Shown here piece by piece: positions 1-13,900 of a DNA stretch of 64,000 nucleotides. Under the pieces are notes generated by a model. It was given only the letters and a program-made list of their open reading frames with translations, was not told the origin of the DNA and made no database searches. Each line of letters opens with the position of its first letter. Within the stretch, counting starts at the first letter, position 1. Source of the DNA: Candidatus Latescibacterota bacterium. GTDB taxonomy: Bacteria; Latescibacterota; UBA2968; GCA-2709665. Made by a program: the position numbers and the translations under genes. Location of the stretch: positions 448,001-512,000 of the forward strand of contig CAXXXF010000015.1 in assembly GCA_963667175.2 (NCBI GenBank), given 5' to 3'.

Positions 1-219
1 AGGCAGATTGAATCGAACCTCCAGGACCGCGAGGATGCTGTCCCGAAGCCCCTGCTCGATCCCCTGTTCAATCCCTTGCTCGATCCCCTGTTCAATCCCT
101 TGCTCGATCCCCTGCTCGATCCCCTGTTCGATCCCTCGCTCAATCCCCTGTTCGATCCCTCGCTCTTTGGCTTCACGCGTGAGATATCGGGCAAAGGACG
201 ATTCGCGGATGAGATCCAT
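1..219 (-). CDS. Stand-alone small C-terminal Rpn protein (RpnS-like putative antitoxin), 9 GIE[QR] repeats; runs off the window edge
   Basis: ATG at 219 preceded by AAGGAGG; encodes MDLIRESSFARYLTREAK..., matching the C-terminus of 362..1327; promoter/leader joined directly to the RBS. Confidence 0.75.
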   Translation of the reverse strand, partial: MDLIRESSFARYLTREAKERGIEQGIERGIEQGIEQGIEQGIEQGIEQGIEQGIEQGLRDSILAVLEVRFNLP

Positions 220-252
220 GATGCCCTCCTTGTGGTAAGGCGCCGTGTAGAC

Positions 253-280
253 AAGATACCGGATCAGTACCGAATGTCAA
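253..280 (-). promoter_or_regulatory. sigma70-type promoter of an Rpn repeat unit (TTGACA-16 nt-TATCTT); further copies at 1376-1403, 2523-2550 and 2944-2971
   Basis: Perfect -35 TTGACA and -10 TATCTT on the minus strand, conserved upstream of all four ORFs. Confidence 0.65.
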
Positions 281-361
281 TGAACAAGACGGGACAACGC
301 GCCTTATGAGTGCATTGTCCCGATATGTGTTATGCGGTAAAGGGTATTTCGGGGATGAGAG

Positions 362-1327
362 TCAGTCCTGCTCCTGATCCAACACCCGACCGAACGCCTC
401 GACGCCGGATACCCGCACCGCCGCGCGATGCAGTTCCTTCAGACGCTGGACGTCGTCGATTCCCGCAACGCGAACCGTCAGGGGATGCGACCCAGATAGA
501 TTGAATCGAACCTCCAGGACCGCGAGGATGCTGTCCCGAAGACCCTGCTCAATCCCCTGCTCAATCCCCTGTTCGATCCCTCGCTCGATCCCTTGCTCAA
601 TCCCTTGCTCGATCCCCTGCTCGATCCCCTGCTCTTTGGCTTCACGCGTGAGATATCGGGCAAAGGACGATTCGCGGATGAGATCCATGATGCCCTCCTT
701 CAAAATGACGTCAGAAATGACCTCCGGCGCGTACACCAGCCCGCTCAGCACTGACATCCCAGCCAGGTAATCGGCCTTTGCAGGCGCAGCGATCGACCGC
801 GCGTTCGCCAGGTGGATACAGCGGCGTAACCACGCGCCTGATCCCATGCCTTCAGGCGGCTTCATCAACGGCGTAAACGCCATCACTCCGACGTGTCCCG
901 CATTGAGCACGCCCTGACCATCCAGCTCGCTCAGCCGAATCACCCGGTACTGTACATGAACCCGGTGACCGGATTCCGATTGCAGATACTGTCCAGGATC
1001 CCGCTCTCCCGCGTCCGGGCGCAGGTAGATGACGCTGGAAAAAACCGGCACGCCGTGCCGCTCAATGGCGCGACCGATATAGCCTGCCATGCGGCGCGGC
1101 ATAGGCGGATCGATGCTGTCCGACGTCTGAAATTCGTTGTGGACCAATGCCTCCGCGCCGTCGATACGGACGCGAATGAGGCTGTCCGCGCGCCGTGCCG
1201 AGACCGTGGGCTGCTCGGTATCGATAACTTCGAGCACTTCAACGTCTTCTCGCCCGAGCGTGAAACCGGCGACGTCGCCGGGATAGGTTTGAATCAGGTA
1301 CTTGGAAATCGCATCGAATTCTGCCAT
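362..1327 (-). CDS. Rpn family recombination-promoting nuclease/putative transposase (PD-(D/E)XK), 321 aa, 7 GIE[QR] repeats; internal RpnS-like ORF 362..688
   Basis: Motifs D..SK.L, RADSL, HNEFQT, MPRRMAGY, SVIYL; C-terminal GIEQ repeats; internal AAGGAGG-N5-ATG. Confidence 0.85.
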   Translation of the reverse strand: MAEFDAISKYLIQTYPGDVAGFTLGREDVEVLEVIDTEQPTVSARRADSLIRVRIDGAEALVHNEFQTSDSIDPPMPRRMAGYIGRAIERHGVPVFSSVIYLRPDAGERDPGQYLQSESGHRVHVQYRVIRLSELDGQGVLNAGHVGVMAFTPLMKPPEGMGSGAWLRRCIHLANARSIAAPAKADYLAGMSVLSGLVYAPEVISDVILKEGIMDLIRESSFARYLTREAKEQGIEQGIEQGIEQGIERGIEQGIEQGIEQGLRDSILAVLEVRFNLSGSHPLTVRVAGIDDVQRLKELHRAAVRVSGVEAFGRVLDQEQD

Positions 1328-1484
1328 GCAGGATGCCCGGGGAACTCTGGGAGAATGGTAAGGCGCCGTGTAGACAAGATACCGGATCAGGACCGAATGT
1401 CAATGAACAAGACGGGACAACGCGCCTTATGAGTGCATTGTCCCGATATGTGTTATGCGGTAAAGGGTATTTCGGGGATGAGAG

Positions 1485-2474
1485 TCAGTCCTGCTCCTGA
1501 TCCAACACCCGGTCGAACGCCTCGACGCCGGATACCCGCACCGCCGCGCGATGCAACTGTTTCAGACGCTGTACGTCGTCGATTTCCGCAACGCGAACCG
1601 TCAGTGGATGCGACCCAGGCAGATTGAATCGAACCTCCAGGACCGCGAGGATGCTGTCCCGAAGACCCTGCTCGATCCCCTGTTCAATTCCCTGTTCGAT
1701 CCCTCGCTCAATCCCTTGCTCGATCCCCTGCTCAATCCCTTGCTCGATCCCTCGCTCGATCCCCTGCTCGATCCCTTGCTCTTTGGCTTCACGCGTGAGA
1801 TATCGGGCAAAGGACGATTCGCGGATGAGATCCATGATGCCCTCCTTCAAAATGACGTCAGAAATGACCTCCGGCGCGTACACCAGCCCGCTCAGCACTG
1901 ACATCCCAGCCAGGTAATCGGCCTTTGCAGGCGCAGCGATCGACCGCGCGTTCGCCAGGTGGATACAGCGGCGTAACCACGCGCCGGATCCCATGCCTTC
2001 AGGCGGCTTCATCAACGGCGTAAACGCGATCACTCCCACGTGTCCCGCATCGAGCACGCCCTGGCCATCCAGCTCGCTCAGCCGAATCACCCGGTACTGT
2101 ACATGAACCCGGTGACCGGATTCCGATTGCAGATACTCTCCAGGATCCCGCTCTCCCGCGTCCGGGCGCAGGTAGATGACGCTGGAAAAAACCGGCACGC
2201 CATGCCGCTCAATGGCGCGACCGATATAGCCTGCCATGCGACGCGGCATAGGCGGATCGATGCTGTCCGTCGTCTGAAATTCGTTGTGGACCAATGCCTC
2301 CGCGCCGTCGATACGGACGCGAATGAGGCTGTCCGCGCGCCGTGCCGAGACCGTGGGCTGCTCGGTATCGATAACTTCGAGCACTTCAACGTCTTCTCGC
2401 CCGAGCGTGAAACCGGCGACGTCGCCGGGATAGGTTTGAATCAGGTATTTGGAAATCGCATCGAATTCTGCCAT
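1485..2474 (-). CDS. Rpn family nuclease/putative transposase, 329 aa, 9 GIE[QR] repeats; internal RpnS-like ORF 1485..1835
   Basis: Near-identical paralog of 362..1327. Confidence 0.85.
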   Translation of the reverse strand: MAEFDAISKYLIQTYPGDVAGFTLGREDVEVLEVIDTEQPTVSARRADSLIRVRIDGAEALVHNEFQTTDSIDPPMPRRMAGYIGRAIERHGVPVFSSVIYLRPDAGERDPGEYLQSESGHRVHVQYRVIRLSELDGQGVLDAGHVGVIAFTPLMKPPEGMGSGAWLRRCIHLANARSIAAPAKADYLAGMSVLSGLVYAPEVISDVILKEGIMDLIRESSFARYLTREAKEQGIEQGIERGIEQGIEQGIEQGIERGIEQGIEQGIEQGLRDSILAVLEVRFNLPGSHPLTVRVAEIDDVQRLKQLHRAAVRVSGVEAFDRVLDQEQD

Positions 2475-2631
2475 GCAGGATGCCCGGGGAACTCTGGGAG
2501 AATGGTAAGGCGCCGTGTAGACAAGATACCGGATCAGGACCGAATGTCAATGAACAAGACGGGACAACGCGCCTTATGAGTGCATTGTCCCGATATGTCT
2601 TTTGCGGTAAAGGGTATTTCGGGGATGAGAG

Positions 2632-2910
2632 TCAGTCCTGCTCCTGATCCAACACCCGACCGAACGCCTCGACGCCGGATACCCGCACCGCCGCGCGGTG
2701 CAACTGTTTCAGACGCTGTACGTCGTCGATTCCCGCGCCGCGAGCCGTCAGTGGATGCGACCCAGGCAGATTGAATCGAACCTCCAGGACCGCGAGGATG
2801 CTGTCCCGAAGCCCTTGCTCAATCCCCTGTTCGGTCCCTCGCTCGATCCCCTGCTCTTTGGCTTCACGCGTGAGATATCGGGCAAAGGACGATTCGCGGA
2901 TGAGATCCAT
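2632..2910 (-). CDS. Stand-alone small C-terminal Rpn protein (RpnS-like), 92 aa, 3 repeats
   Basis: AAGGAGG RBS, own promoter copy, matches the C-terminus of the long copies. Confidence 0.75.
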   Translation of the reverse strand: MDLIRESSFARYLTREAKEQGIERGTEQGIEQGLRDSILAVLEVRFNLPGSHPLTARGAGIDDVQRLKQLHRAAVRVSGVEAFGRVLDQEQD

Positions 2911-3147
2911 GATGCCCTCCTTGTGGTAAGGCGCCGTGTAGACAAGATACCGGATCAGGACCGAATGTCAATTGCATCCGGGAGATTTCCGCTAAATTCA
3001 TTCCCGGACACCGGCGCGGATTCCAACCGCAGCCCCCGATATCCAGGTGGGTCCGGGATTTTCTTTCTGTGAATCCACGATCAGCGTCCCGCCTCCTCCG
3101 ATTCCCCCTGCTACTAGCCACACCACGTGCCAGATCGGCCGCCGTAT

Positions 3148-3203
3148 TATGTCATTATGTCATTATGTCATATTATAGCAGATGATATGCCATTTTGGCA
3201 TAT
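3148..3203. promoter_or_regulatory. Putative enhancer/operator upstream of hsp20: (TATGTCAT)x3 and palindrome ATATGCCA-TTT-TGGCATAT
   Basis: Direct repeats at 3148-3171 and perfect inverted repeat at 3185-3203, ~120-175 bp upstream of the sigma54 motif. Confidence 0.5.
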
Positions 3204-3437: not shown

Positions 3438-3872
3438 ATGACACTCACCAGGTGGCAACCCAGGCGGCGCTTCGGGCTCGTTCCCGAGATCGACCGGTTC
3501 TTCGACAGCTTCTGGAGAGGCCCGCAGCACGATTTCCCCGCGCTGTCCACGTGGCGTCCGGCGACCGACGTGCAGGAGACCGACACGGACCTGCTGGTCC
3601 ACGTTGAGCTTCCCGGTCTGTCCAAGAAGGACATCAAGGTCAACATGGACAACGGCGTGTTGTCGGTTCAGGGCGAGAAGCAGCACGCGTCCGAGGAGAA
3701 GGAGAACCGGTACCACGTGTCGGAGCGGACCTACGGCCGCTTTGCCCGGTCGTTCACGCTTCCGTCCGAAGTGGACGCGGACAAGATCAAGGCCGGATTC
3801 GAGAACGGCGTGCTCACGCTGACCCTTCCGAAGCTGAAGGCGGCCACGCCACAGGCGATCGAGATCGCGTGA
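3438..3872 (+). CDS. Hsp20/alpha-crystallin small heat shock protein
   Basis: P.TDVQET, ELPGL.K.DIKV, ERTYG.F.RSF.LP, NGVL.L.LPK; AAGGAGG RBS. Confidence 0.97.
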   Translation: MTLTRWQPRRRFGLVPEIDRFFDSFWRGPQHDFPALSTWRPATDVQETDTDLLVHVELPGLSKKDIKVNMDNGVLSVQGEKQHASEEKENRYHVSERTYGRFARSFTLPSEVDADKIKAGFENGVLTLTLPKLKAATPQAIEIA

Positions 3873-4249: not shown

Positions 4250-4579
4250 TCAGGATTCGAGTTCCAGTGCGATGGCAAGCGCATTGTCGAGCGCCCGGAC
4301 CTTGTGGCGAGACAGAGTTCCGATAAAGTGGGTCAACGTGGACTTTGAAATACTGACCAACTGGTCGCAGAAAATGCTGCTCTCATGCTTGAGACCCTCG
4401 CCCACGCCGACAGGCACCTGCGTAGAAAGCCCATCGCGGGAGGAAAATACCGGAGCGCAGACAACGGTCGAGAACTTCGAATCAATGAGGGCCTGGCGGC
4501 TGACGACCACGAACACCCGGTAGTCTCGAGGGTCCTCGCGCGATCCCCTGTAAACACGATATAGTTCACCGCGTGTCAC
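4250..4579 (-). CDS. mazF: PemK/MazF family type II toxin (endoribonuclease)
   Basis: [42 protein letters not shown]. Confidence 0.9.
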
Positions 4580-4815
4580 GGGTCGATCTGCCAGGAAAGC
4601 ACGTCTTTCGCTTCATCGTTAAATGCTGAAGCTTTCCGGTCGAGAATTTCCGTATCCTGTGCGTCCCGGATCCGCCGTCTCAATACTGCGACATACTGCC
4701 TCAATGCCGTTTCCAGGAACGCGGATCGGTTCTTCGGCGTATCCGGCGCCTTCAAAAGGCTGTCCATCTCCCGGACCAGTCCTTCGGACAGGGTTATCGA
4801 GGTTTTAATTTTCAC
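4576..4815 (-). CDS. Ribbon-helix-helix antitoxin (likely GTG start at 4815)
   Basis: [10 protein letters not shown]...[14 protein letters not shown] pattern; overlaps the toxin start by 4 nt. Confidence 0.8.
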
Positions 4816-5132
4816 GGGCTCATCCTTCACTATTTGCAAAAGGTCGTATATTTATCTTACTAAAAGTAGTATATCTGGAGATATTTGTCAAGAAGATTGG
4901 CTGTCAGCTATCAGCCGTCAGCCAAAAGCGAGGAAAGGGTAGAGGAGAGTCACGGGAGACGTGAGATGATACCAGTGCCCGATGGTTTTTCCAGTCGTTA
5001 CGATAACGGTAAATTAGCAGGCACGGTATATGTAGAAACACTGCTGCAAATGTCTTCATCTACCGTCTCACGTCTCACCGCTTTCAGGTCTTCCTTCATC
5101 CTTCAACCTTTTTCCTTCTTCCCTTTCACGTC

Positions 5133-10693: not shown

Positions 10694-10933
10694 TCTCCTG
10701 GAAGTTGTGACAATCGTACGGACGGCTCTTCAACCAGGTCCAGGTTACATCTCCCGCGGTACTGCCTGGAACCCACTTTGCGACCAATTCCTAACGATAG
10801 CCATCTGGCGCTCGTTTGTCAATCTTCAGCGCGCTTTTGGACCCGACGGCAACTGCCCGCCGAGTCCGGCTTCCACTATCGTATTAACTCCGAAACATGA
10901 AACTGCGTTGCGATGGGGCGCGCCATCCTGACT

Positions 10934-13900
10934 TCAAAGGTTCCAAATATCCGGGATCCGCCACGTATCCCCCGGCGCGACGTCGTAGATGTAGAACGGT
11001 TTTCCTGAAAAGGCCTCCGCCTTTCCGGCGTCGGCGAGGGTGAGTTTTCCCTTCTCCGCGGTTTTCAATCGAGTCCCGGTCTGTCCACGCGTATGCGAGA
11101 TCGTCTTCCCGTCGAACAGGTCGCGCACAACCTCGAGCTTCAACATGGGGGTATCCGTCAACAACGTTGCGCCCTCTGCAGCGGTGATCCGTCCCTCGCT
11201 CAACAGAAAGTCCATCCTGTCCACGGAGATGCGGTACCGTCCCTCGCCAGCGTGCGCTATGTCCGTGACCTCGTATGACGAATTGCAGACGTAGTGGGGA
11301 TGCGCGAGCAGGATTGTCTGACCTGTCAATGAACCGTCCACCGGAAGGGGGACGCGGGACGAGACGACGATTCGTCGGTCCTCGATTTCCACGGCATCCA
11401 CCTCCCCCGACCATTCTCCGGCGCCCTCCATCCCGACGTCTCCGAACCGGAACGCCTTTCCGTTCACCACCTGTGCCCGCCGGACCGTGTTGCCTTCGCG
11501 CTCCACAAACGCCCAGTCTCCCTCCAATCGAAACGGCAGGCCGTCCGCTTCGCCTTCCACCATGCCGTCAACACCGTACACGATATAATGGACCCGTTTG
11601 CCGATCTCGATTCTCAAACCCGTGCCCCGAGCGCCTTCGCAAAACGGCTCGACCGCGTCAATGTACGGCATTCCGGAAAACGGCTCGAGTACCCCCATGA
11701 ACCGGTTCTCCTTCCCCTCCCCGCCGGGCCGCCTTACGATCACGTGCCGGTCCCACGGACTGTGGCCCTGCAGTCCCGTCCCTTCTGCGAGCCCGGTAAT
11801 GACCGTCGAGCCCGCCTCGCCCGTCATGTGGAGGTTGATACCGACGCCCGTTTCTTCCGTTCGCCAGGTCGCCCTGAACCCGCCATCCGTCCGGGACCTC
11901 GCCACGTCCTTCACGAACCCGTACCCGGGCGCCTCGCCGAACGGGACGTCCGCCCCTGCCAGCGTCCCGTCCGCCTGCGCGATCGGAGCCGCGCCGTCCT
12001 CCAGGGCGATCTCGAACCGTTCCGCGTTGTCTCCCGCCCAGCTGTGGAAGGTGTAATCGTGCTCCGCGCCACCCGCAATCCGGAACAGATCGACCATATA
12101 TGCCCGCTCTTCGTCCACCGGAATGAGCGCCACCGCCCTGCGGTACAGGTTCGCGAGACCGGGATAGGCCCGCTCGGCCGAGGCATCCGCCACGCGCACC
12201 CACGGTCCGTCCGCGAACAGATTCAGGCTGCCCGTTGCGAACACCTGGTTCCGGCCGTCGATCAGCGCGGTGCAGTGGCTGGCCGTATGGGTTTCCCATC
12301 CGTCCTTCTTCGGCGCCACCCAGCTTGGCGGATATCCCAGATCGGCGGACAGATCGTACCCGTACGCGATCAGATTCACCGCCAGTTTGTCCATATGCCC
12401 GTGACCCCGGTTTCCCTTCCCGTAGTTCAGGACCACGTGCCGGCGTCTGGCTTGTTCATCGCCCGCGCGCAAGATGCAGAATCCCGAGTCGTGCAGCACG
12501 TCGCTCCCGGGCGATAGATCCTCCGGCGCCCGGGCTTCGCTCCACGGTTCGCAATGGAACACCGTGTAGAGGTCGCCGCCCCTGCGCGCTACGTCCGGAT
12601 CTCCGCCGGCGCCCGCGAGAATACGTCGGGCATAATGGTCGCGCGCCTCGGGCAGACGCAGGTAGCCGATCTCGTCTTCCAGGGAATAGGGCGTCCGCAA
12701 CGTGCGGTTCCTGCCCCCGCCCGTATCCCCGATCATGGGCACGCGCCCGTCGCAGTCCACCGCGCGGGCGAAGTCCATCATCTCGCGCAGCCGGAACCCG
12801 GGATCGCGATACAGGTCTACCGGCGACGCAGAGTGCTCTCCGTCCTGAAATCCGAGGGTCCATTCGGCGGCATTCAGCGCCCCCCGTATGTTGCCCGCGC
12901 CGTAGCCGATCGAGTCGTACCAGAATTTCCCGTCCCGGAAAAAACTGTTGGACATCACGTTGTAGAGGCCCGTCGGCGCTTCCAGGGCCTGTCTGATCAT
13001 CGAGCCGTTCTGCAGGCAGGCCCCAACCTCGAGCAACGCGTAGAGCGACGACGTCAGGAAATCGCCGCCGGCGAGGGGCAGCGAGCGGTCCAGGAATTCA
13101 TAGGCGTACGCGAACAGGTTTCGATGGATATTGAATAAGATATCCCCCGTTGTCGCCGGTCCGTCCGCGTCGCCTCTCGACTGGAAGAACCTGACGAGGT
13201 CCTCGTCCTCGCGAATCGCGTCGAAGACCAGATCGTACGTCACCGCCACGTTATGCAGGAAAGACTGCTCGCGCCCCGACGCCTCGCCCACGTACCCGCG
13301 GATCGGGTCCTTGCTCCGGTCGTAGGCCTCGTATCCCTCCTTGATGCCCCGCAACCTCCCGTACACGTCGGCCAGACGGTTCAACAGAACTCCGGCCTTG
13401 TGCGAATACTTCCGTTCGCCCGTAAATGCGTATGCCAGGGCCAGCGCCTGCGAGGCCGGCCGCCCCTGGTGCCCGTCCCCGGTCTGCGGGGCATAGGGAC
13501 TGGAAAACAGGCGGTAGAGCAGATAGCACCGGTACGCCCCGGTGAAATAGTACGTGACGCCGGCGTTCGGGAACCCTTCGGGGGCCACCCACCCTGCCCC
13601 GTCGTCCACCATCCGGACCGTCTCGCCCGTGCCCGGATTGACAACCTCGATGCCCTGGTACCACCACTCGCCGCCCAGGTTGCACCGCCACTGGTATGGA
13701 TGCAGAAGATCGCCCTCGAACGTGGACCGGTTGCCGCCGTGAATCGGACACCCGTCGTACTGGGCCACGGTCAGCGCCATCGGATTCTGCGTGGGCACCA
13801 TCGCATAGAGCGTCTCGTCGGAAAATCCCGCCCAGAAGTCGGCGTCCTGTACGATTTCGTCCACCATATCCCGCGCCCACTCGAGCCGGTCCGCGTTGCC

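Follow-up and report, generated by a model that had tools for sequence, protein, structure and literature searches.

The DNA analysed here (the window) comprises 64,000 nucleotides (nt) of a Candidatus Latescibacterota genome (GenBank assembly GCA_963667175.2, contig CAXXXF010000015.1, positions 448,001 to 512,000; G000:C15:448001-512000) and opens with a series of related long and short genes on the minus strand. At a probability of about 0.7, these genes are read as a tandem array of a divergent Rpn-type toxin/intragenic-antitoxin system, in which the short units derive from one deletion followed by amplification and the number of short repeats acts as a ruler. Antitoxins produced from within the toxin gene have their founding example in the Rpn systems. 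The small protein RpnS, made from an internal start, has been reported to block the toxic RpnL (PMC10400941; commentary PMC10400984); its repeats of four amino acids (aa) were described as beginning 8-20 residues after the Met and varying between strains (PMC10400941), and RpnS can also be encoded as a separate gene (rpnSs, ypaA, DUF4351; Zhong et al. 2023, PMC10400941).

Judging from its predicted fold, its active-site residues and transitive links through hidden Markov models (HMMs), the long protein is a divergent Rpn relative, that is, a PD-(D/E)XK nuclease resembling RpnL. The C-terminal part of the same gene is very probably also made alone, as an RpnS-like product, from an internal Shine-Dalgarno (SD) site and ATG. 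Five short units encode this C-terminal part, their junction has a single origin, and a structural model favours an interaction between the short and the long protein. Toxicity, inhibition and defence have been published for the E. coli Rpn proteins; for the present array we infer expression, toxicity, antitoxin activity and phage defence.

Layout of the array and proposed origin of the short units

As assembled, seven units lie head to tail on the minus strand within 4.5 kb (G000:C15:446474-450971), in the order short (3 repeats), long (9), long (7), short (9), short (4), short (5) and short (11), the repeat number being the count of 12-nt units that each code for (Q/R)G(I/T)E. A reading made earlier from the letters of the window (the sequence-only reading) had described the first four of these units with the same order, strand, coordinates and repeat counts, all of which were confirmed; the array runs past the window start, with three further short units of 96, 100 and 124 aa that carry 4, 5 and 11 repeats. 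Each unit spans from a promoter-like site, TTGAC(A/T)-16-TATCTT, to a 3' hairpin, GGGACAA..TTGTCCC, which is followed by a T-run only at the last unit of the array, outside the window. Nine promoter-like sites were found in the scan, against 2.5 +/- 1.8 in shuffled sequences, and every one of the seven units has one of them, all on the minus strand, which for the four units of the window agrees with the earlier description of promoter-bearing units. Those features of the array that lie in the window are the following, from the 5' edge of the array onwards.

2944..2971, minus strand: promoter-like site of the short gene S92, TTGACA-16-TATCTT, at the 5' edge of the array, with unique sequence upstream
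2916..2931, minus strand: junction of S92, with CCTTACCA at 2924-2931, C at 2923 and the SD site AAGGAGG at 2916-2922; the ATG follows 5 nt on, at 2910
2632..2910, minus strand: S92, stand-alone RpnS-like gene, an open reading frame (ORF) of 92 aa with 3 repeats (repeat tract 2818-2853)
2561-2591, minus strand: hairpin after S92
2523..2550, minus strand: promoter-like site of the long gene L329
1485..2474, minus strand: L329, Rpn-like PD-(D/E)XK nuclease gene, 329 aa, 9 repeats (tract 1671-1778)
1833..1847, minus strand: internal SD AAGGAGG (1841-1847) and internal ATG (1833-1835) of L329, with a predicted RpnS-like product of 116 aa
1414-1444, minus strand: hairpin after L329
1376..1403, minus strand: promoter-like site of the long gene L321
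362..1327, minus strand: L321, second Rpn-like nuclease gene, 321 aa, 7 repeats (tract 548-631)
Within 362..1327, minus strand: internal SD (694-700) and internal ATG (686-688) of L321, with a predicted product of 108 aa
291..321, minus strand: hairpin GGGACAA..TTGTCCC, 3' of the L321 stop codon
225..280, minus strand: junction of the short unit S116 (CCTTACCA at 233-240, C at 232, AAGGAGG at 225-231) and its promoter-like site (253-280)
1..219, minus strand: 5' part of S116, 116 aa in full, 9 repeats (tract 55-162); its end lies outside the window, at G000:C15:447869

All five short ORFs are intact. Those of the window open at MDLIRESS, as do the internal starts of the long genes. All five lie downstream of the promoter-like site and leader of the long genes, share their SD, and encode proteins 93-98% identical to the C-terminal part of the long genes. 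The short units encode only the C-terminal protein behind the toxin's own promoter, as had been proposed; they are five separate ORFs that hold the RpnS part alone and adjoin their parent rpn-like genes, as stand-alone rpnSs genes do. Four of the five carry CCTTACCA-C-AAGGAGG exactly, and the 96-aa unit has CCTTTCCA instead, a difference of one substitution. A single C stands where the long unit has ~656 nt (the remaining leader and codons 1-209), so that the junction is the same between copies but not seamless. The sequence-only reading was right about the identical junction of both short units of the window.

In the proposed mechanism, a single deletion of ~656 nt would have removed the nuclease domain and fused the toxin promoter and leader to the internal SD. 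The deletion unit would then have been amplified by tandem duplication into five antitoxin-only genes of the rpnSs type, and slippage or unequal exchange in the 12-nt repeats may have given each copy a length of its own (3, 9, 4, 5 and 11, against 9 and 7 in the toxins). Movement of the units as transposons was also considered and rejected: no inverted repeats or target duplications flank them, and the duplication unit extends from promoter to hairpin, which agrees with an argument made in PMC10400941.

In the non-repeat coding parts, synonymous divergence reaches 14.6% over all pairs of units and amounts to 1.6-8.1% between short copies (proportion of synonymous differences, pS, ~0.046). The ratio of nonsynonymous to synonymous differences (pN/pS) is ~0.21 over all 21 pairs and ~0.30 between short copies, values that come from small counts and from pairs that are not independent. 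The variable sites form a mosaic across long and short units, which suggests exchange between them. Elsewhere in the genome, decayed or truncated pieces of the family were observed at G000:C18:51299-51589, C18:52681-52953 and C4:158821-159073, with one 96-aa ORF that has a single repeat unit.

Rpn relationship of the long protein and its predicted internal start

At E<=0.001, the family of the long protein counts 4597 representatives. Across 33 diverse full-length members, aligned at 23-58% identity (alignment A1), D48, E65 and Y83 are invariant, and D5, Q67 and R79 are conserved in at least 90% of the sequences. When the A1 profile was compared with E. coli RpnA by hhalign, D5, D48, E65, Q67 and R79 fell onto D11, D63, E82, Q84 and R94, so that each of the five RpnA active-site residues has an equivalent; mutation of these RpnA residues was reported to alter recombination, toxicity and SOS induction (PMC5350276). 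D5, D48, E65, Q67 and R79 are the predicted active-site residues of L329.

The AlphaFold2 (AF2) model of the long protein, with a predicted local distance difference test score (pLDDT) of 93.3, points to a PD-(D/E)XK, restriction-endonuclease-like fold in the N-terminal part. Residues 1-135 match PD-(D/E)XK nucleases, with NucS (2vld_B) as the best match (Z 8.7, root-mean-square deviation 3.0, 102 aligned residues), followed by 1xmx_A (Z 7.9), Can2 (8bao_B, Z 7.4) and then R.BspD6I, SdaI, FokI and McrC. A Z near 8 does not greatly exceed background for the tool that was used, and nearly all matches to residues 1-135 are PD-(D/E)XK nucleases. Foldseek agrees weakly on this N-terminal fold (XisH, E 0.013).

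The links to the Rpn models pass through other members of the family. TIGR01784 is matched at E<=0.01 by 19 of the 33 A1 members and its cut-off is reached by one of 32, P0367 (52.6 vs 52.1 bits), which in turn matches the window protein with an E of 2.5e-20; PF14261 is matched by 2/33 members (best E 7e-07) and PF04754 likewise by 2/33. Some close homologues are labelled in public sources as 'Rpn family recombination-promoting nuclease/putative transposase' or as 'YdaD'. Taken together, fold, active-site residues and HMM links bear out the earlier assignment of the long genes to the Rpn-type nucleases, with the addition that they are divergent. The window proteins lie under every family threshold and belong to a large clade that is poorly covered by the current Pfam and NCBIfam models.

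Other assignments were examined and rejected. Yae1_N and DUF1805, the sole Pfam matches both at E<=0.01 and at E<=10, are weak and are read as low-complexity cross-hits; the NCBIfam FliH matches cover only the G-x-x-x repeat tract, lie well under their cut-off and are read in the same way; and the 'putative invertase' match given by PADLOC is weak and on the repeats. Glycine repeats are known in FliH, and four NCBIfam FliH models were seen to match below threshold on the repeat helix (e.g. window 1671-1778) in 19-22 of the 33 family members. Searches against the sequences of solved structures returned nothing useful, either for the single protein or for the profile.

The internal ATGs of the two long genes, at window positions 1835 and 688, each follow AAGGAGG-GCATC, and the coordinates and the predicted products of 116 and 108 aa that had been given for them earlier hold. 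The same holds for the observation, made in the sequence-only reading on these two genes, that the long start lacks an SD while the internal start has a strong one: in all 13 distinct long genes known from the genus, the long ATG has no SD-like run of purines before it and an SD of the (A/C)AGGGAGG type or AAGGAGG stands 5 nt before the internal ATG, a conservation to be read with the caveat that the letters of the internal SD also encode K-E-G. The stand-alone homologues start at the same Met in 37/37 sequences of a second alignment (A2), and the motif MD(L/I)xRES opens all 37 sequences that were picked for it. An Hsp20/alpha-crystallin gene further along the window (PF00011, E 1.9e-25; 3438-3872, plus strand) has a canonical AAGGAGG 7 nt before its ATG, which indicates that the organism uses standard SD sites. 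Since the promoter scan found no promoter-like site inside the long genes, a long gene would yield its small product from the mRNA that also encodes the nuclease, and the lack of an SD before the full-length ORF would favour the production of more inhibitor than nuclease.

Predicted binding, repeat numbers and alternative explanations

In the model of the long protein, the C-terminal part consists of a 63-residue helix (221-283) that carries the repeats, followed by three short helices. The short protein is predicted to fold alike, with one long helix (repeats in helix 3-46) and three short ones. The repeats are 4-aa units of the G-I-E-Q type that start 19 residues after the internal Met; as in RpnS, they vary in number, begin 8-20 residues past the Met and lie in the first helix. 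Their number ranges from 2 to 11 among the nine copies of this genome and from 2 to 18 in seven recounted loci. When L329 was modelled together with the 116-aa short protein, the complex had an ipSAE of 0.71 (runs 0.71, 0.71 and 0.69), the best control had 0.02, and a mark of 0.71 was reached by 116 of 157 solved complexes and by 2 of 215 mismatched pairs. Contacts agreed to at least 97%, and the pLDDT of the partner was no lower than 86. The modelled interface joins residues 233-267 of the long protein with residues 6-54 of the short one, parallel and in register, and the C-terminal bundles also touch. Most likely, the short protein would pair along the repeat helix of the long protein with the repeat number serving as a ruler, where unequal numbers could not satisfy both ends.

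In a published test on RpnC, RpnL was blocked only by an RpnS of equal repeat number (PMC10400941). Under this rule, no short copy but the one with 9 repeats should neutralise a toxin of the array, namely the toxin that also has 9. A lone long gene on another contig has the same repeat number as the 5-repeat short copy, and the other three short copies would have no equal-length partner in the genome.

A number of results weigh against the interpretation of the locus as a divergent Rpn array with a repeat-number ruler. At the level of sequence, no match of the window proteins to PF04754 or PF14261 was found even at E<=10, and the same was true of the whole genome; TIGR01784 scored 7.6-13.4 bits on the window proteins, against a cut-off of 52.1 bits, and on the repeat part only; BLASTP of the window protein against E. 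coli RpnA was not significant; and the hhalign comparison of the A1 profile with RpnA had a probability of just 3.3% (E 0.013). The profile of the short proteins gave nothing against RpnA by hhalign. The RpnA-S structure 7TH0 was not among the listed Foldseek and VIA-align matches of the short model, which were generic helical bundles only, an absence that is not evidence of differing folds. The modelling of the complex, which used alignments made in this analysis, may have drawn on solved helical dimers, and the apparent purifying selection on the short copies could stem from gene conversion by the long ones. The repeat numbers themselves are a further difficulty. Of the five short genes, the 9-repeat copy alone has the repeat number of a long gene in the array (9 and 7). 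With the two other full-length genes of the genome, on contigs C16 (5 repeats) and C2 (2 repeats), the short copies that equal any of the four long genes (9, 7, 5 and 2) rise to 2/5, which is about what chance gives over the range of 2-11. Because of this mismatch, most short copies would not be cognate antitoxins by the published rule.

A simple dosage role, which the sequence-only reading had offered as one outcome of such an array, fits poorly: by the equal-number rule and with a single short gene matching the toxins of the array, the mismatch argues against it. What the mismatch leaves is either neutral instability or a role in specificity. If instability prevailed, the short units would be functionless by-products of an unstable repeat locus, deleted at the 5' side and decaying, with repeat numbers set by neutral slippage. 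Such an explanation, which we hold to be unlikely, would account for short and long repeat numbers that agree no more than chance, for the degenerate family fragments on C18 and C4, for frameshifted or stop-containing copies in relatives, and for the finding that 13 of the 15 stand-alone copies in the eight loci known to contain both forms share their repeat number with no long gene of the same locus (four of the eight loci come from one genome and are not independent). It is harder to reconcile with five short copies that keep the promoter-like site, SD, ATG and open frame at ~4.6% synonymous divergence with a pN/pS of ~0.30, and with stand-alone copies that arose repeatedly and are common in the clade; moreover, YpaA/RpnESs of E. 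coli, which is such a copy too, is produced in cells (PMC10400941). If the copies were inert, the locus would simply record the instability of such loci.

The five short genes might instead be maintained as length-graded rulers (3, 4, 5, 9 and 11) that set or change specificity and not dosage, either by donating repeat tracts in recombination, so that neighbouring nuclease genes could change their repeat number and thereby escape from or pair again with inhibitors, or by pre-arming the cell against Rpn toxins of other lengths; the length mismatch just described would then be selected. This is a speculative proposal, which we regard as improbable, and, if it were true, the donor role would resemble that of the silent cassettes of antigenic variation. 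As a replacement for the interpretation preferred here, a length-graded set of donor cassettes for toxin repeat tracts, or of inhibitors of other-length Rpn toxins, genomic or incoming, seems quite improbable. It is consistent with five copies of five lengths, with the mosaic of variable sites and with the equality of the 5-repeat copy and the lone C16 long gene, and it has been proposed that RpnL itself may drive such recombination (PMC10400941). On the other side, neutral slippage predicts the mismatch too, the number matches are at chance level, and there is no direct evidence for directed exchange.

Misassembly of a repeat-rich locus, in a genome from a mixed population, is a very improbable source of the array or of its copy number. 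No contig of the public short-read runs spans the array, with breaks and uncovered parts in the repeat tracts; 15 of 24 pieces from one run (X1) and 16 of 32 from another (X2) fit two places; and contamination of the CheckM type is 4.75%. Against an artefact, the units differ at 22 of 258 shared positions past the repeat tract, and in repeat number, and so are not one collapsed or expanded copy. The short-type junction was recovered without differences in contigs of run X1 (10893-10957 in the coordinates of this locus, L013), and in run X6, from another study, it adjoins, with one letter changed, the 3' end of an upstream unit (L013 6781-6990). In addition, the array lies on a contig of 905,912 bases and similar long-short-short arrays occur in chromosome-level assemblies of relatives. 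A joint in run X6 that 'goes back', from 9671 to 6781, was also seen and is read as a contig crossing between repeat tracts or as a low-repeat variant.

Relatives, known systems and neighbouring genes

Homologues of the long protein are present in 13/14 other genomes of the genus and in none of the seven genomes from four other genera of the family, and the clade occurs in uncultured bacteria labelled Gemmatimonadota or Latescibacterota. Stand-alone short genes are common, with 2056 matching proteins of 63-203 aa at E<=0.001. In a scan of contigs, the best 80 of 369 confirmed stretches were resolved into 79 loci, which together with the query's own locus contain 79 long, 25 short and 13 intermediate modules. 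Both forms occur together in 7 of the 79 loci, or in eight when the own locus is counted. Long-short-short arrays were found in L049 and L060, a short-short-long array in L080, and the array of five short copies is the largest seen among the best-80 loci and the own one.

At least four other deletion or duplication junctions gave rise to the stand-alone copies of relatives. In L028 (G008:C19), two short genes, at ~1690-1780 and 4690-4784 of the locus, are preceded by a remnant of the long ORF, its first ~33 codons, which ends in a TGA stop just before the SD and would act as a small upstream ORF. Elsewhere, the short gene of L029 keeps ~47 codons, that of L025 has another leader and that of L024 retains 14 additional codons. 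Two duplications of the 3' third of the long gene are seen in L049, with 52 upstream codons kept; such partial 3' duplication is a second, independent route to detached RpnS genes. The inhibitor was detached many times in the clade, through different deletions and partial duplications. The genome that contains L049 (4188-6363), L057, L060 and L072 has more than 15 family loci, several with a long gene and a partial 3' duplicate, or two of them, in which 52 upstream codons are retained. The unit counts in its loci are 18/10/12; 8/10, followed at a distance of ~2.9 kb by another long gene with 7; 8/3/15/10; and 14/7.

When the array is set beside the E. coli Rpn systems as described for RpnA-E and RpnP2 (PMC10400941, PMC5350276), the likeness includes an N-terminal PD-(D/E)XK domain with the D/D/E-x-Q/R residue set, a small C-terminal domain that could also be translated from an internal SD and ATG, 4-aa repeats that vary in number and lie close to the beginning of the small protein, in its first long helix, and several copies per genome with tandem duplications. 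Among the differences, pairwise similarity to RpnA is not significant and no Pfam or NCBIfam model is matched directly above its cut-off by the window proteins; distant homologues match TIGR01784, PF04754 (Transposase_31, YhgA-like) and PF14261 (DUF4351), whereas the window proteins remain under the thresholds. An internal promoter is marked in E. coli rpnA in the legend to Fig. 1 of PMC10400941, in contrast to the long genes here, in which no internal promoter-like site was found, and up to 20 repeat units are found in relatives of the present clade among the best-80 loci.

The genes closest to the short units are the rpnSs genes of PMC10400941, namely ypaA/rpnESs downstream of rpnE, rpnCSs and those with DUF4351 only, which likewise encode RpnS alone, adjoin and derive from an rpn gene, and have independent origins in different lineages. 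They differ from the present array, as far as they are described there, in being one copy where here there are five per array; here, in addition, each copy stands under a copy of the toxin promoter fused by deletion to the internal SD and each has a different repeat number. According to the same paper, separate rpnS copies arose independently from their neighbours and rpn arrays formed through tandem direct duplication. The central idea of the sequence-only reading, an intragenic antitoxin turned into an independent gene, agrees with short units that hold only RpnS behind the toxin promoter; it is not new, being already in print since separate rpnS genes are described in Zhong et al. 2023. What is new is the divergent clade, the array of five antitoxin-only copies, and the repeat numbers of short copies that are usually unlike those of the neighbouring toxins. 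A further feature of this variant is that the toxin's own promoter was captured through a deletion with its end at the internal SD. Arrays with several rpnSs copies were not found among the 25 papers listed, out of 422, in a search of the later literature, where only the 2023 paper and its commentary were relevant; the SI Appendix (Fig. S1B, S3) and Dataset S1 of Zhong 2023 may show larger ones.

The evolution of repeat number and the role of detached rpnSs genes are named as open questions in PMC10400941 and in the commentary (PMC10400984). In this respect the locus offers a natural panel for the repeat-number rule outside E. coli, with putative toxins of 9 and 7 repeats and otherwise near-identical candidate inhibitors of 3, 4, 5, 9 and 11.

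Beyond the array, the AT-rich spacer that separates it from the Hsp20 gene (window ~3140-3180) has three tandem copies of GACATAAT beside TATAAT-like hexamers, and these may belong to the Hsp20 promoter region. At ~1.3 kb from the array lies a PemK/MazF-like toxin gene (PF02452, E 4.4e-13; window 4250-4579, minus strand), and upstream of it, with a 4-nt overlap, an 87-aa ORF that has no Pfam match (window 4576-4839, minus strand); the two are probably a type II toxin-antitoxin pair.

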